Assembly: GCA_039801565.1 (NCBI GenBank)
Contig: JBDRUX010000001.1
Coordinates: 51,403 to 115,402, forward strand
Source of the DNA: a candidate division WOR-3 bacterium
GTDB lineage: Bacteria; Hydrothermota; Tepidihabitantia; Tepidihabitantales; JAOUPE01
Length of the DNA stretch: 64,000 bases
Direction of reading: 5' to 3'
A model generated the notes under the pieces. It ran no database searches. It worked only from the letters and a program-made list of their open reading frames with translations, and was not told where the DNA came from. Positions 3,804 to 18,659 of this stretch are shown here, piece after piece; positions within the stretch are counted from its first letter, which is position 1; each line of letters starts with the position of its first letter. Both the position numbers and the translations under genes were made by a program.

Positions 3804-4080
3804 AGGTCCTCCGTTTCTAATAATAACTTAATAGTTCTGTTTATTCGAGGGACTATTCCTCTCCCTATCCTTTATCTTCCAAGAATGGGGAACAGCGAGG
3901 TGATTTGCCCCTCGTTCCGATTATAATCAAGAAAATTTATCGGGTCAAGCATTACTTTTCATTAAACTTAATTTATTTAAGGTGGCAATTTAATAATTTT
4001 AGCTACTGGCTGGATAGCCGAAGAGATAGATTATGAACGAAAAGGGTTGACAAAAGGCAAAGTCTTTATATCCTACTTGA

Positions 4081-13346: not shown

Positions 13347-13355
13347 TAATTTTGT

Positions 13356-13391
13356 TAAAAAAGGTCCCTCAGAGTGTACATCTGAGGGACC
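13356..13391 (-). terminator. rho-independent terminator (11-bp perfect stem, 7-nt loop, U-tract)
   Basis: ggtccctcaga-gtgtaca-tctgagggacc, followed on the minus strand by a 6-nt T-run. It lies upstream of the HK start. Confidence 0.5.
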
Positions 13392-14340
13392 CTGCCTAAC
13401 CGACTTGACCCCAAAAACGGACTGGGGTGGGAAGGAAACTTCACCTTAGCACACAACGAGAGAGACCCGACCTCTCATATCTATTATTGCAAAATTTGTG
13501 CCAGAAGATTAAATTAAAGTTCGATTTTCTTTCTTATTGTAAAATAATAACTTAAATTAAGGGTCAATTAAACCACTCTTTTTAAAAGTCATTGATGTTG
13601 CATTTATGCAAATTTTGTTGTAAATAAGCAGCACAATTGATTTGGGTGTGGGTCATAATAGATTGCGGTTCTTGACCATTTAGTATGGAAGACACTTGAG
13701 GCATCGCTTCAATCCTTTGTCCACCATAAAGCCAATCTCTTCACTCAATCCTAAATATTACCTATACCGTCACCAATATTGGATCAAATAACAATCCTTT
13801 CTCAGTCTCAAAAAAACGAAACCATTCCAATTTCATAAACAATTATACACAATCGGCTCAATATTTTAACCATTTGGTTGGTAATATTCCGATAGCCACT
13901 ACAGTGGTTGCTTCTCGGAGTGCTATACGGGACTACCGAAGAAGCAAGGAGATTAGTGAATAGAAATTAACGAAGATGTTGCGATGTGATTTATCGCAAA
14001 ACAGCGGTTGTTCGGTAGCGTTGTTGGATTGGCCATTCGTGATGAGGTCAGTTGTGCCAGCATCTTTTGGTTTCTTTGTTTAAGATCGATTCTATCCGGC
14101 TCTTTTAAAAATTTCACTGAAGACGCACCACAAACTCTAAGGCACTTAAGAATTGTATTCAAAGATGAATTTTTTACCCTACCCTTTTCCTGAATTTAAA
14201 GACAAGCCAATACCTTTAGCCACCTCGGCTTGTGACAAATTTACCTTCTGACAGGTTTTAATTAAAAGCTTTACTATTGCTTGGGTTATAATTGTTTAAT
14301 TATTTTAAGGTTTTAAAAAGTATACTATTTAGTATATACC

Positions 14341-14556
14341 AAAAATCAAGCCGAAATTTCTTTTAACTAGTAGCCTCGTAGGTTGGTTCAGGGGTTAGCT
14401 GAGGACCAAGTTCGCAAGCGAGTTGGGAGGCAACTTGGGAAACGGGTTAGGGATTTGGTTAGGAAATTAGCTGGGGAGCTGGTTCGGAGGCGGCCCCGTG
14501 AGCTACCTCAGGGATTGGCTAGTAGGCAAGCTGGAAAGTAAAATCGTAGGCTGACT
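14341..14556 (+). repeat. Copy C of the dispersed 12-nt periodic repeat family
   Basis: Leader AAAAATCAAGCCGAAATTTCTTTTAAC (shared with copy A), then a degenerate 12-nt periodic array (agttgggaggca/acttgggaaacg/ggttagggattt/...) containing cgtagg words. Confidence 0.55.
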
Positions 14557-14662
14557 TTTTCCTAATAATAAAGATTTAAAAAAATAAGATTCTTTCGCAT
14601 CTCAATTTTGCCAATTTTGTTCATATTAAAATCTTAATTTTGCTCACTTTTTGCAATTTAAA

Positions 14663-15631
14663 TTAAAAAATATACCGCATCGCTTGTTTTAAAAGCGGAA
14701 CGCCGCGTATCTCTTTATCCATTTCGGGCAAGATTCCTAAGACATTGGGAAAGGTTAATTTTATCTCAGCCAAATATTTTTCTTGCATCGCAATGCGATT
14801 CAAAACAAATTCGGGAGCATTGTCTTTGACCAAACTCTTATCAATCACTCGATTCACAATCACCCCGCCGACCGGAATGCCGAATTCTTTAAACCAACCG
14901 ATGAACCTTTTAATCACCGCAATCGGTAAGGCTTCGGGTAAAGTGACAAAGAAGAATGCGGTTAATTGGTTATCGGTTAAGAGGTTGTGGACGCGTTCAA
15001 TCCGTTCTTTAAAATTTAAAAGATAAGTTAGTAAAGGGTCCTTTTCATCTTTTTGCGAAAAGGATAATTTCTTTCTTAATTCCGTAGCCTCTTTGCGGCT
15101 GGCGAGCATCTTTTCAACCCATAAGGTATAGACCTTTGACATACCAAGTAATCTTCGGGCATTAGCGGTTGGCGCAGTATCAAAAACGTAGCAATCGTAT
15201 TTATTCTCAAACATCAAATCTACCATCTTTTCAAACATCGCCGACTCTTCAAATGCCGGATTCATCGTAGCGGATTCAATAAAATCTTCGGTCTTTTGAC
15301 CTGAGATATCAGCATATTTTAAGAACCATTCAATCTTCTCTTTGATTTCACCTTTCTTTTTGCTAATAATCTCTTTGGTCTCAATCTCTAAGGCATAGAG
15401 ATTAGTATTGCTAACCTTGGTCTCTTTACCAAAGACATTTTGTTCTAACAAACCAGAAAGGCTGTGCACTGGATTAGTTGAAGCGAGTAAGACCTTCTTA
15501 CCAGTTTCGGAAAGATAGAGTGCGGTCATTCCTGCCAAGACAGTTTTACCGACACCGCCCTTACCACCAAAGAAAATATACTTTAAAGTTGGGTGACTGT
15601 TAATAAATTCTTTCATTTTTTTTGAAACCAC
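14663..15631 (-). CDS. ArsA/Get3-family anion-transporting ATPase (half-size), paralog 2
   Basis: Deviant Walker A FFGGKGGVGKT at the N-terminus. 322 aa. Confidence 0.75.
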   Translation of the reverse strand: MVSKKMKEFINSHPTLKYIFFGGKGGVGKTVLAGMTALYLSETGKKVLLASTNPVHSLSGLLEQNVFGKETKVSNTNLYALEIETKEIISKKKGEIKEKIEWFLKYADISGQKTEDFIESATMNPAFEESAMFEKMVDLMFENKYDCYVFDTAPTANARRLLGMSKVYTLWVEKMLASRKEATELRKKLSFSQKDEKDPLLTYLLNFKERIERVHNLLTDNQLTAFFFVTLPEALPIAVIKRFIGWFKEFGIPVGGVIVNRVIDKSLVKDNAPEFVLNRIAMQEKYLAEIKLTFPNVLGILPEMDKEIRGVPLLKQAMRYIF

Positions 15632-15643
15632 CGAGAAATAAAA

Positions 15644-15684
15644 AATTTTAAAACCGCGGATGGGCGCGGATTCACACGGATATA
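15644..15684. repeat. Left arm of a ~40-bp imperfect inverted repeat flanking the GxxExxY gene
   Basis: aaaattttaaaaccgcggatgggcgcggattcacacggatata. The reverse complement of 16132-16168 is ttaaaaattttaaccgcggattcacgcggattata. Confidence 0.5.
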
Positions 15685-15694
15685 ATTATTTTTG

Positions 15695-16126
15695 TCAATC
15701 AGTATGTAATCGCTTTTCATTCTTTTTATTTTTCCTTGATAAAACCAATCTTTTATATTCTAACTTGGGTTTGGCAAAATTAAGGATTACTCCAACTTCG
15801 ATACCTGTCGCTTTCAAATAATTTAGTATTTGTGCTTCGTGGATTTTTTCAATCTTATCGCAGGCTTTTACCTCGACAATTACTTTTTTATCAATAATTA
15901 TATCAGAAATGTAATTACCAACTTTTTTCCTTTTGTAAAAAACTTCAATCAATTTTTGATTTTCGACCGGAAGATTTCTACTTCGAAATTCTTCAAGCAA
16001 GGCATTCTCATATACTTTTTCCAAGAATCCACAACCTAAATAATTGTGAACCTCAAAAGCAGCATTAAGTATTTTATGAGTCAATTCGCTATGTAATAGG
16101 TCTTTTGGTAAATTAATATTTTCCAT
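15695..16126 (-). CDS. GxxExxY-family protein
   Basis: Motif GFLEKVY (G-x-x-E-x-x-Y) in the N-terminal helix. About 140 aa, as expected for this family, which is known from rRNA intervening sequences. Confidence 0.65.
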   Translation of the reverse strand: MENINLPKDLLHSELTHKILNAAFEVHNYLGCGFLEKVYENALLEEFRSRNLPVENQKLIEVFYKRKKVGNYISDIIIDKKVIVEVKACDKIEKIHEAQILNYLKATGIEVGVILNFAKPKLEYKRLVLSRKNKKNEKRLHTD

Positions 16127-16131
16127 CGGCG

Positions 16132-16168
16132 TATAATCCGCGTGAATCCGCGGTTAAAATTTTTAATC
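16132..16168. repeat. Right arm of the inverted repeat flanking the GxxExxY gene
   Basis: tataatccgcgtgaatccgcggttaaaatttttaa is the reverse-complement partner of 15644-15684. Confidence 0.5.
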
Positions 16169-17134
16169 ATACATTATCATTGCCATTTTTTCAATCATCG
16201 CTAAACCGGTGACATCGCGCTCTAATTCCGGCACCCAGCCCAATACTTTTTCACCGAATTTTTGCTTAATATCCGTCATCGGCTGGCGTTGGCTTGCGAT
16301 TCGATTCTTTAGATATTGCGGAATATTCTCTTTTTCTAACTCTTGCGGAATTACCCGATTGACCACAAAGCCGGTTATCGGCACACCATAACGCGAAAAT
16401 AGTCCTGCTGCCTTTTCGGTATCAATAACACTCATTGCCTCTGGTGTCAGCACAAAAAAGAAACCAGTTTTTTCTTTATCAGTAAAGATTGAAGAAGCGA
16501 GATTGATTCTTTTGCGGATATATTGCAACTCGGCAAGGATTTCGTCCTCTTCTTTTATCTCTTCACTTTTCATTTTCGCTACCACTGCTTCGTATCTTCG
16601 CATCTCTTCCCGTAATGAAGTAATCTTATTAATCCATTCATCATAGATTGAACTCATCGAGAGATAATAAAGGGCATGACCTAAAGGCACTAAGTCATAA
16701 ATATAATAATCAAAATTGGTGGTATTGACGATATCCACTACCGCATCAAAAATGGCACTTTCTTCCATTGCTGGTTCAGCTGAAGTGGCAGTAATATAAC
16801 TTTCAATCTCCTCAGGTACTTTTTCAAAGCCATAACGGTCAAGAATCTTTTTTCTTATCTCATCCTGATACTCTTGGATTCTTTTATCAGCATCAATCTC
16901 CTGAGCAAACAAATTGGGAATTATCTCTTGGGCACCTTTACCGAAAATATCCTTTTCAAAGATATCCGAAAGTGAAGCCTGGGGGTCAACCGAAAAGACC
17001 AAAACCTTTTTACCTTGCTTGGCTAACCAGAAGGCGGTTGCCGCAGAAAAAGTCGTTTTGCCCAAACCACCTTTGCCACCAAACATAATATATTTCATCT
17101 TCGGATTCTTTTGAAACACTTCTTTTAAGGTCAT
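16163..17134 (-). CDS. ArsA/Get3-family anion-transporting ATPase (half-size), paralog 1
   Basis: Deviant Walker A MFGGKGGLGKTT. 323 aa. Confidence 0.75.
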   Translation of the reverse strand: MTLKEVFQKNPKMKYIMFGGKGGLGKTTFSAATAFWLAKQGKKVLVFSVDPQASLSDIFEKDIFGKGAQEIIPNLFAQEIDADKRIQEYQDEIRKKILDRYGFEKVPEEIESYITATSAEPAMEESAIFDAVVDIVNTTNFDYYIYDLVPLGHALYYLSMSSIYDEWINKITSLREEMRRYEAVVAKMKSEEIKEEDEILAELQYIRKRINLASSIFTDKEKTGFFFVLTPEAMSVIDTEKAAGLFSRYGVPITGFVVNRVIPQELEKENIPQYLKNRIASQRQPMTDIKQKFGEKVLGWVPELERDVTGLAMIEKMAMIMYD

Positions 17135-17146
17135 AGCATTCAGTTT

Positions 17147-17707
17147 TTATCCTTCTTGAATTTTTATTGATGCCAAGGCTTTTTGGAAGGCGGTTTCGTA
17201 TTTGGTAAAGTCTTCAGGCAAGGCTCTAAAGAAAACCTCAATGACTTCACCGTCTTTGCCGATATAAAGTTCAATCACCTTATATTCTGCTTCTTTTATT
17301 ACCTCAATCGCATTAAAATTACCAATCTTCCTTTGTGTCTTAGCAACAATCCGAGTTTTGGTTACTTCTTCTAACTCCTCTTCACCGACGATATTACCTA
17401 AGGTCTTTGTCATCTTTTCAAACATTGATTCTATCTTTGCTGATTCTTTTAGCGTGTTCTCAACAAATTCTTCTACGGTCTGTTCTTCTTCCAATTGGTA
17501 TTTAACAACCATCCCCCAGTTATCATCCCTTTTGGCTGGTTCATAAAAACTGGTTGAGTCTTTGGGGTCGGTCTGCCAACCGGTAGGTAAGTTCATTGAA
17601 AATCCTAAATCTGGGATTATCACTCGGTTACTACCTTTTTGACAATCAAGTGATAACAGAAGAATAAAAGTTAAGCCACTAAATAAAATCTTAACAATTT
17701 TTACCAT
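17147..17707 (-). CDS. hypothetical acidic lipoprotein
   Basis: Signal peptide with lipobox LSLDC. Glu-rich. Tightly linked upstream of ArsA paralog 1. Confidence 0.4.
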   Translation of the reverse strand: MVKIVKILFSGLTFILLLSLDCQKGSNRVIIPDLGFSMNLPTGWQTDPKDSTSFYEPAKRDDNWGMVVKYQLEEEQTVEEFVENTLKESAKIESMFEKMTKTLGNIVGEEELEEVTKTRIVAKTQRKIGNFNAIEVIKEAEYKVIELYIGKDGEVIEVFFRALPEDFTKYETAFQKALASIKIQEG

Positions 17708-17762
17708 TCAGTTTTATTTTATCTGATTAAGAATCAAAGTCAATCGTTCGATTGGTTCGGAT

Positions 17763-18659
17763 TCAACCTAAGAAGACTAACAAGGCGCCACTGAAGGCAA
17801 TAATTATTGCGAAGAGACGAATTAGGGTTATTGGTTCTTTTAAAAGGATTGCCGCAAGGATGAAGACAAAGATATAGCTCGTTTGATTCAAAGGTGCGGC
17901 AATTGAAGCCTGGGTATATTTCATTCCGCCCAGCCAGACAACCAATGTGAAATAGGTTCCAACCAAACTGCCGCCGAGTGTATAGCCCAAACTTTTGGTT
18001 GTAAATAGAGAAGCGATAATTTGGTTACGATTAGGTAAAAATAAAGTAATAATTAAAAGGCTAAGAAAACCAGCAATCAGACGGATTTCGGTTGCCCATA
18101 ATAATGGTGTCTTAGTGAGTAGTGGTTTAATTAAAATAACACTGATTGCAGTTGCTACCGAGGCTAAAACACCACATAAGATTCCGATAAGCAATCCCTT
18201 TCTGGTTAAGTTTTTCGGTAGTTTTATCTGTGTGGTTGATGTTAAAGCAAAAAGGATTAAAATCACTCCCAAAATCTGTAATAAAGATAAGCGTTCATTG
18301 AGGAATAAGACCGAAAGGATAATAATTGAGGGACTGTACATATAACCGACAATTGCGGATAGTGAAGCACCAATTCGGTTTAGGCTCATAAAGAAAAAAG
18401 TGTCACCAATCGCCATCCCTAAGATACCACTAAGTAAAAAGATTGCGTATTCCTTTAAAGCAACCGGTCGCAATAATTGCTCACCGAAAATTGTCATTGT
18501 TGGCAGTAATAAGAGCATTGCCAGAAGGTTTTTGAAAAGGTTCAGTCCAATTGGGTGAACTGTCTCGCCACTCTTTTTAAATAGAATAACCGCAAACGCC
18601 CAGGCAAGCGCACTGAGCAGAGCTAAAGTCTGTCCTAAATAAGGGAAATTGACTGGCAT
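17763..18659 (-). CDS. EamA/DMT-family transporter
   Basis: About 10 predicted TM helices and a two-EamA-repeat-like architecture. 298 aa. Confidence 0.65.
   Translation of the reverse strand: MPVNFPYLGQTLALLSALAWAFAVILFKKSGETVHPIGLNLFKNLLAMLLLLPTMTIFGEQLLRPVALKEYAIFLLSGILGMAIGDTFFFMSLNRIGASLSAIVGYMYSPSIIILSVLFLNERLSLLQILGVILILFALTSTTQIKLPKNLTRKGLLIGILCGVLASVATAISVILIKPLLTKTPLLWATEIRLIAGFLSLLIITLFLPNRNQIIASLFTTKSLGYTLGGSLVGTYFTLVVWLGGMKYTQASIAAPLNQTSYIFVFILAAILLKEPITLIRLFAIIIAFSGALLVFLG

Follow-up and report, generated by a model that had tools for sequence, protein, structure and literature searches.

The two ArsA genes of a candidate division WOR-3 bacterium are separated by what we take to be a mobile cassette. 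In the stretch of DNA analysed here (64,000 nucleotides of contig JBDRUX010000001.1, hereafter the window), a small gene of the GxxExxY family lies between the genes for two TRC40/GET3/ArsA-type ATPases, ArsA-1 and ArsA-2, and is bounded on both sides by arms that form an inverted repeat. We propose, with a probability of roughly 0.6, that this unit is a selfish, horizontally moving, promoterless cassette that inserted at the stop/start junction of ArsA-1 and ArsA-2 and carries a GxxExxY nuclease as its cargo. That it is an inserted member of a mobile cassette family seems to us highly probable. An initial annotation of the sequence had recognized the GxxExxY gene, its flanking inverted repeat and its position between two ArsA/Get3-type genes; profile scores, the repeat search and folding uphold that description.

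Insertion and turnover at the ArsA junction

Eighty loci came from a metagenome scan with ArsA-1. The two ArsA genes are neighbors in every locus that has both, and in about 60 loci there is no cassette between them, with 7–100 nt from the last aligned ArsA-1 codon to the first aligned ArsA-2 codon. Stop and start codons abut or overlap in several of these loci, including L018 (TAGATG), L009 (ATGAATAG) and L007 (TAG T ATG), the last of which is the nearest empty allele (90% and 89% amino-acid identity in the two ArsA proteins). In additional WOR-3 relatives the junction is empty or the genes overlap. Because related genomes have the ArsA genes abutting or overlapping with nothing between them, the cassette is, by these alignments, an insertion at this junction. 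The comparison of orthologous loci agrees with the view of the initial annotation that the cassette is a discrete inserted unit, and it gives the opposite of the pattern named there as adverse, namely ArsA genes always separated by this gene without repeats.

The junction is filled in more than one way. Cassettes with the arm type of the window occur in L004 and L005, with 93% and 77% protein identity, respectively, and a distant GxxExxY gene (40–46% identity) with CGCAGAT / ATCTGCG arms holds the same junction in the high-G+C loci L013, L020 and L072. The closest relatives, L167–L169, which share 96% nucleotide identity in ArsA-1, ArsA-2 and the upstream genes, have instead a gene for a 122-aa 23S_rRNA_IVP protein (PF05635). 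This cassette (L167:3384–3881) has different arms and is bounded by a weaker, AT-rich inverted repeat. Empty junctions, GxxExxY cassettes and PF05635 cassettes are found in genomes that are 79–96% identical to the window at the nucleotide level in the flanking ArsA genes. In a neighbour-joining tree built from ArsA-1 plus ArsA-2, alleles with and without a cassette are interspersed and the PF05635-bearing lineage is nested within the GxxExxY-bearing one. Synonymous divergence is two to three times lower for the cassette gene than for ArsA-1 (0.11 vs. 0.31 and 0.90 vs. 2.1; the values are rough, as the gene is short). This lower divergence suggests that the cassette came in, or was exchanged, after the lineages split. 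Read from these alignments, cassettes are gained, lost and exchanged at this junction between close relatives. The patchy phylogenetic distribution, the PF05635 replacement in the nearest relatives and the family-wide architecture described below all favor the mobile unit that had been offered as one interpretation in the initial annotation.

Other alleles at the junction show further variation. In L004 (4001–4483) the cassette ATG has been lost (it is now AAG) and a nearly invariant position carries the change G31D; an ATG overlapping the stop codon of ArsA-1 (ATGATTAA) can still serve as the start of the open reading frame (ORF), which then reads through the 5′ arm (NRGFTRIYAEE). The ArsA spacer of L019 is unusually long (~100 nt; 3958–4056), has degenerate unit-like motifs in it (ACGGATTCCGTCGCGCGAT) and may be what a lost cassette left behind. 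In L008, a WOR-3 relative with 87% identity in ArsA-1, the contig stops 49 nt past the ArsA-1 stop codon, and this short segment (2298–2346) has a different periodic motif, GATTACAGCGATGATTAACCAGATTACAACGATG, possibly an arm of yet another cassette at the ArsA junction. A candidate remnant of a GxxExxY arm in the PF05635-bearing allele (ATGGGCGC) is an 8-mer match at chance level and was not used.

Structure and pairing of the cassette arms

The repeat search returned inverted arms at 15643–15672 and 16135–16164 (30 nt) with a 17-nt core of 94% complementarity. The repeat is genuine, as the motif search and the duplex stability reported below also attest. It is not the near-perfect reverse complement that was initially described: each arm consists of three successive units of ~10 nt, a CGCGGAT with its spacer, and AACC...GGTT is at the cassette termini. 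Both arms were delimited on the minus strand by sequence reading, by repeat and motif searches and by their pairing with each other. The 5′ arm (16125–16163) reads AACCGCGGAT-tca-CGCGGAT-tata-CGCCGAT(G) in sense. From the outside in, it consists of the palindrome AAAATTTT (16156–16163), AACC (sense; 16152–16155) and units at 16146–16152, 16136–16142 and 16125–16131. The innermost of these units is degenerate and contains the ATG of the cassette gene. The 3′ arm (15642–15684) reads ATCCGTG-tga-ATCCGCG-ccc-ATCCGCGGTT in sense; its parts, given on the plus strand, are AAAATTTT (15642–15649), AACC (15652–15655) and the units CGCGGAT (15655–15661), CGCGGAT (15665–15671) and CACGGAT (15675–15681). 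The palindrome lies outside each cassette end, and its 5′-side copy runs into the ArsA-1 stop codon.

The motif CGCGGATTCACRCGGAT (up to 3 mismatches) occurs three times in the window, against 0.10 expected, always within the two arms. Within the window it is not the common, generic promoter or terminator repeat that the initial annotation had allowed for. Other periodic array hits in the window are low-complexity noise. Folding of the transcript across the cassette, which had been suggested as a check, joins both arms in the minimum-free-energy structure of the sense RNA (z = −3.0). The arm–arm duplex has a predicted energy of −44.5 kcal/mol vs. −22.1 ± 4.1 kcal/mol for shuffles (z = −5.5), and 1 of 653 equally spaced pairs of genomic segments is equally stable. 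More than one pairing register between the arms is possible.

Cassette architecture across the GxxExxY family

A GxxExxY alignment was used to fetch 80 loci, one genome per species, and the survey comprised 86 distinct GxxExxY loci in about 15 phyla. The groups covered are Planctomycetota, Verrucomicrobiota, Acidobacteriota, Desulfobacterota, Chloroflexota, Nitrospinota, Bacteroidota, Ignavibacteria, Latescibacterota, WOR-3 and a Methanosarcinales archaeon. The upstream and downstream flanks align as inverted repeats in 59 of the 86 loci. Three units per arm is the commonest count, and the units are spaced by 10 nt in 158 of 213 cases, by 9 nt in 51 and by 11 nt in three. Their consensus is A-C-R-C-R-G-A-T followed by two or three variable bases, with lineage-specific variants (CACAGAT, CGCGGAT, CACGAAT, CACAGAA, CACAGAC and ACAGGAT); whichever variant is present in one arm is always matched in the other. 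The usual cassette ends are (T)AACC or (T)AGCC at one side and GGTT or GGCT at the other.

Covariation was counted over the two outermost units of both arms in 31 loci that were picked via the alignment, which favors pairing; in this set 93.7% of cells pair vs. 79% in shuffles, and the shuffle and slide controls separate clearly. Changes on both sides are seen in 15 of 20 pairs, in a total of 86 such cells vs. 23 ± 4.5 (none of 500 shuffles reaches 86). Complementarity extends beyond the units in a locus-specific manner (84% matched). A control using mismatched pairs failed as a null because the arms of different loci share units and pair with one another at −54 kcal/mol; the alignment-based counts and the covariation count were used in its place.

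The GxxExxY family is very large, with 32,444 clusters at 50% identity (E ≤ 0.001), and in five surveyed loci two copies occur within one 8-kb locus. The size of the family, the paired copies and the existence of cargo-less derivatives are more typical of selfish repeats. The protein P0101 is found on 24 contigs and has the gatA | gatB context on every one; because the context never differs, it provides no evidence of recent transposition.

Derived and composite forms are also present. Cargo-less hairpins of the same units occur after stop codons and in tandem arrays (L093:7800–8363, L058:2351–2410, L158:38–262). The array in L093 has a 98-nt period, with HepT and BrnT toxin genes located between such hairpins. 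Twelve successive 5′ arms and six 3′ arms surround a single GxxExxY gene in L103 (3472–4736), three successive 3′ arms follow the GxxExxY gene in L013 (2682–2875), and solo arms also occur. A composite form at the gatA | gatB junction (L171:1225–2660, L092:3953–5106, L090:511–1947) comprises a 5′ arm, a GxxExxY gene, a second 5′ arm, a larger ORF and a 3′ arm; the second cargo (305–316 aa) has no Pfam match and is 69% identical between genomes.

Shared inheritance of protein and arms

The unit variant follows the protein. In 59 of 66 cases (26.5 expected) a protein and its nearest neighbor from another locus share the unit variant. Across phyla, copies that agree in variant reach about 75% amino-acid identity (Opitutales and Dehalococcoidia, i.e., Verrucomicrobiota and Chloroflexota; also Anaerolineae and Blastocatellia), which indicates that the whole unit moves by horizontal transfer. 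Within one locus or at one junction, GxxExxY and PF05635 cassettes have different units: CRCAGAT vs. CCCAAAT / TCCGAAT in L006, CACAGAT vs. CGAATG in L123 and, in the clade of the window, CGCGGAT vs. CTAATTA at the same junction. The units noted for PF05635 genes are ~8 nt (CGAATG / CAAAG). In two Verrucomicrobiia (L089:3984–4420 and L134:3985–4400) the same host junction is occupied by cassettes with 72% protein identity in which all units of both arms are CACAGAT in one and CACGAAT in the other, a pattern that implies concerted change or replacement.

Placement in operons

The cassette gene points the same way as its upstream neighbor in 71 of 82 cases and as its downstream neighbor in 55 of 79. 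A host stop codon lies 2–21 nt ahead of the first unit in 33 of 49 loci, often overlapping the cassette terminus (TAACC, TAGCC, TGAACC), and a host ribosome-binding site and ATG are often found 10–35 nt past the 3′ end. Other occupied junctions are those between a histidine kinase and a sigma-54 response regulator (L006) and between gatA and gatB (L092, L171). Because of this co-orientation, the placement of the stop codons and the junctions that are hit, the cassettes appear to sit in operon spacers, without room for a promoter or terminator of their own.

The initial annotation had suggested that the stem could act as a terminator that insulates the two ArsA genes. We reject an intrinsic (rho-independent) terminator: there is no terminator-like site in 14500–17900, where 2.4 are expected, and folded singly the arms do no better than shuffles (z = 0.08 and −1.4).

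The GxxExxY protein

The cargo gene (15695–16126, minus strand) encodes a 143-aa member of a small PD-(D/E)XK nuclease family, with scores far above the cut-offs for TIGR04256 GxxExxY (143.7 bits, cut-off 35) and PF13366 PDDEXK_3 (141.5 bits, cut-off 22) and with the motif GFLEKVY. PF13366 is its only Pfam match, and there is no match to Y1_Tnp. Residues G33, E36, Y39, D75 and K87 are invariant among 32 aligned relatives and E85 is conserved in at least 90% of them; all are kept in the 143-aa protein. The ratio of nonsynonymous to synonymous divergence (dN/dS) is 0.13–0.33 against relatives. Judged by its sequence, the gene is under purifying selection and encodes an intact nuclease.

A confident AlphaFold2 model (pLDDT 87) has a PD-(D/E)XK-type fold. 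The nearest solved folds, all at low TM-scores of 0.4–0.5, are Cas4 SSO0001, lambda-type exonucleases, tRNA-splicing endonucleases and the Holliday-junction resolvase Hjc. A sequence search of solved structures with the GxxExxY protein gave no match, PADLOC gave weak matches to Cas4 profiles (E = 1e-5) and PHROGs gave a marginal match only. Many family members of 250–295 aa (e.g., P0241–P0247) consist of two tandem GxxExxY domains. Because of these two-domain relatives, the sequences hint that the working unit of the single-domain protein is a dimer. Gene callers frequently extend the ORF into the arms, with false N-terminal extensions such as NTDKHG and NRGFTRIY as a result; the L004 copy illustrates how such extensions come about.

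The host locus

All genes of this stretch are on the minus strand, in the order ORF without a family match, ArsA-1, the 143-aa ORF and ArsA-2. The first of these (17147–17707, minus strand), a putative lipoprotein gene according to the initial annotation, has no Pfam or NCBIfam match in the profile search. ArsA-1, the upstream host gene (16163–17134, minus strand), is a TRC40/GET3/ArsA ATPase (PF02374, 236 bits; TIGR00345, 226 bits) with its TAA stop codon at 16163–16165. The downstream gene, ArsA-2 (PF02374, 222 bits; minus strand), is a paralogue with 36% identity to ArsA-1. Its ORF is listed as 14663–15631; alignment of N-termini with relatives places the probable start at the ATG at 15616–15614, for a gene at 14663–15616, and the gene call in an identical contig is 317 aa. 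Alignment of filled and empty junctions defines a spacer between the cassette and ArsA-2 (15617–15641, minus strand) that has no counterpart in empty alleles and has GGTGG 11 nt ahead of the ATG. The G+C content is 0.29–0.31 for the cassette and 0.38–0.40 for the flanks.

The identical sequence was found in a candidate division WOR-3 genome bin (GCA_965649045.1). The called neighbors in the identical contig are CstA, DUF7990, EamA, a 186-aa protein without a family match, both ArsA genes, a histidine kinase and a sigma-54 regulator. On the 3′ side of ArsA-2 is a 1.3-kb region without a long ORF (13347–14662), in which no RNA family was identified (Rfam) and a 32-nt unit occurs twice at 14599–14662.

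Proposed mechanism and alternative explanations

Because there is no room for a promoter or terminator of its own, the cassette would be transcribed together with the host operon. The arms would pair in the transcript to form an interrupted duplex of about 40 bp, which would bring the stop codon of ArsA-1 close to the start of ArsA-2 again and bury the start codon of the cassette gene. By analogy with 23S rRNA intervening sequences the duplex would be a likely substrate of RNase III, and processing of the stem is plausible on that ground; pairing or processing would make the insertion tolerable to the host. The conserved, cargo-specific units, spaced at about one turn of the DNA helix, would be binding sites for the cassette's own protein, and the nuclease would take part in moving or homing the cassette. 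The orientation bias, the intra-operon position, the buried start codon, the complementary extension and the RNase III precedent (PMC4990558) favor a role for the RNA stem. The cross-phylum conservation of the units, their period of 10 or 9 nt (almost never 11), the poorly paired spacers, the conserved termini and the cargo-specific units suggest that the sequence is also read, most simply by a protein on DNA. Probably both levels, RNA and DNA, matter. We regard a co-transcribed cassette with a functional RNA stem as an evenly balanced proposition, and action of the nuclease on its own arms as a tentative one.

Several observations weigh against the selfish, mobile cassette or against parts of its proposed mechanism. 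Elsewhere in the 64-kb window we found no second copy of the cassette, no PF05635 gene, no unit array and no cargo-less hairpin. The palindrome AAAATTTT outside both ends reads as a direct and as an inverted repeat, and the nearest empty allele is too diverged, so that no target-site duplication is callable. Ordinary homologous recombination in the conserved ArsA genes could account for the swaps between close relatives. A relative is present on only 6 of 72,556 plasmid records, all typed as non-mobilizable and mostly large replicons (0.4–1.6 Mb); plasmid carriage does not account for the spread. Complementarity of the arms is 94% at core positions and falls to 61% in the spacers, vs. 49% expected from composition. 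Mismatches that are G-U in the sense rather than the antisense RNA are in weak excess (81:59 and 65:44), a trend rather than proof of selection on an RNA stem. PF05635 cassettes behave alike yet encode no nuclease, and mobility may thus be due to an enzyme other than the nuclease.

It is possible, if unlikely, that the arms matter as RNA only. The cassette would then be an insert akin to an intervening sequence or to a repetitive extragenic palindromic (REP) element, with a stem that is processed by RNase III or stabilizes the transcript and sets the relative expression of ArsA-1 and ArsA-2; it would spread solely by horizontal transfer and homologous recombination in conserved flanking genes, and the cargo protein would have no mobility role. 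Such an explanation accounts for arms that pair in the sense transcript, for an orientation bias that tracks the upstream gene and for the locus-specific complementarity beyond the units. It also accommodates the non-nuclease cargo (PF05635) in the same junction, the ArsA genes that are ~70% identical across phyla and would supply long homology arms, and the documented excision of intervening sequences by RNase III (PMC4990558). However, a stem requires complementarity, not a unit sequence that is shared across phyla at a fixed 10-nt period. The spacers are poorly complementary, the G-U strand asymmetry is weak, the unit type is set by the cargo within one genome, and solo and multiplied arms exist.

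We consider it improbable that the cassette is instead a module that benefits its host, such as a Cas4-like defence nuclease or toxin-like gene that is silenced by a stem hiding its start codon, exchanged in the manner of variable defence genes, and flanked by heptamers that are sites for a host regulator. The weak Cas4 matches, Cas4 as the nearest fold, the purifying selection, the ATG within the innermost unit, the HepT and BrnT genes among similar hairpins (L093) and the alternative cargo in one slot are in line with this idea. Yet no partner gene (antitoxin, sensor or cas) was found in the cassette or locus, and the unit type tracks the cargo rather than the host. The 32,444 clusters, the two copies per 8-kb locus in five loci and the cargo-less derivatives form a selfish-repeat pattern. 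An old, vertically inherited gene of the ArsA operon, with a repeat that arose by chance or is a generic terminator or promoter, would explain why the cassette has the same position in three lineages with 77–100% protein identity, but is scarcely credible. Most relatives lack the cassette and have ArsA genes that abut or overlap, and these empty alleles contradict it, as does the interleaved tree distribution. The repeat motif is confined to the two arms (three occurrences vs. 0.1 expected), their duplex is far more stable than shuffles (z = −5.5), no terminator-like site is present, and the same arm architecture occurs at unrelated junctions (histidine kinase | response regulator, gatA | gatB).

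A broader version of the mobile-cassette reading is that GxxExxY cassettes form a hitherto unrecognized class of autonomous mobile elements of ~0.5 kb, in which a dimeric PD-(D/E)XK nuclease recognizes three heptamers, about a helical turn apart, at each end of its own cassette. The elements would insert or home precisely at the stop/start junctions of co-transcribed genes, the RNA stem neutralizing the insertion. ORF-bearing rRNA intervening sequences and cargo-less hairpins would be special cases or derivatives. This generalization strikes us as rather doubtful.

Comparison with known systems

The closest known system is the ORF-bearing intervening sequence of 23S rRNA found in Leptospira, Coxiella and Xanthomonas (S23p / PF05635). 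These sequences are bounded by a stem, their excision by RNase III has been shown experimentally (PMC4990558), and the protein that they encode is of the four-helix-bundle family PF05635 (PMC4990558, PMC11270868). The initial annotation had assumed that GxxExxY proteins are the ones known from these elements. The cited work assigns that place to PF05635, and no conserved rRNA motif was found in the first 166 loci fetched (about 90 of them with a GxxExxY gene). The likeness is nevertheless considerable. An intervening sequence and a GxxExxY cassette are of similar length (428 nt in Coxiella vs. ~500 nt), each contains one small ORF (PMC4990558), and the complementary ends form a stem of ~28–40 bp around it. 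Both are inserted where the host RNA tolerates them, are sporadic and have a lower G+C content than the host (PMC4990558). They differ in that the ArsA cassette is in an mRNA operon rather than an rRNA helix and carries a PD-(D/E)XK nuclease gene where they encode a four-helix bundle. They may differ further in the arms, which in the ArsA cassette are arrays of conserved units at a 10-nt period. Because the window contains no rRNA (Rfam), and with it no 23S location, we do not count the GxxExxY cassette as a member of the class; the link survives indirectly because a PF05635 cassette holds the same ArsA junction in sister genomes.

REP elements and the hairpins built from them (REPINs), together with their REP-associated tyrosine transposases (RAYT; TnpA_REP), also place a small gene between inverted copies of a short repeat. 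As in the GxxExxY family, cargo-less hairpins of the same repeat occur after stop codons or in tandem (here L058, L093 and L158), and the repeat variant evolves with the protein. The enzymes differ (an HUH/Y1 transposase there, a PD-(D/E)XK nuclease here), which sets GxxExxY cassettes outside this class. Typically there is a single RAYT gene per family, whereas some genomes have more than one GxxExxY gene, and REP elements are single palindromes rather than the three-unit arrays of cassette ends. Correia (NEMIS/CREE) and ERIC elements are inserts bounded by inverted repeats in operon spacers; they are co-transcribed, and their stems are reported targets of RNase III or RNase E that alter mRNA stability. 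These elements are non-coding, ~100–150 bp long and restricted to one genus, whereas GxxExxY cassettes carry a gene and span phyla.

Free-standing homing endonuclease genes resemble the cassettes in being small nuclease genes between conserved genes, with presence/absence polymorphism and repeated hits at one site. Known homing enzymes are of the LAGLIDADG, GIY-YIG, HNH, His-Cys box or a few PD-(D/E)XK types, and the ends of their genes are not known to have inverted unit arrays. Terminal inverted repeats, a feature of DNA transposons and miniature inverted-repeat elements, are present in the form of the arms with their conserved AACC...GGTT; the sole protein encoded between them is the PD-(D/E)XK nuclease. 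The unit does not match an integron gene cassette: the repeats lie on both sides of the ORF, rather than in a single downstream attC, and there is no integrase among the called neighbors.

Significance

Where rRNA intervening sequences come from, how they move and what their ORFs do are questions that date from the early 1990s and have stayed open (PMC4990558), and the family entries PF05635 and PF13366 still carry the label uncharacterised (PMC11270868, PMC3424549). We found no description of GxxExxY cassettes, heptamer arrays or placement at operon junctions in the open-access literature. GxxExxY cassettes are apparently an undescribed and very large family that occupies the gene junctions of operons across many bacterial phyla. 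Recognition of the arm architecture would improve genome annotation, because gene callers often read arms into the ORF as false N-terminal extensions. The ArsA junction represents a natural experiment, with defined "before" and "after" sequences and predicted binding sites, for the study of mobility, RNase III processing and translational recoupling.

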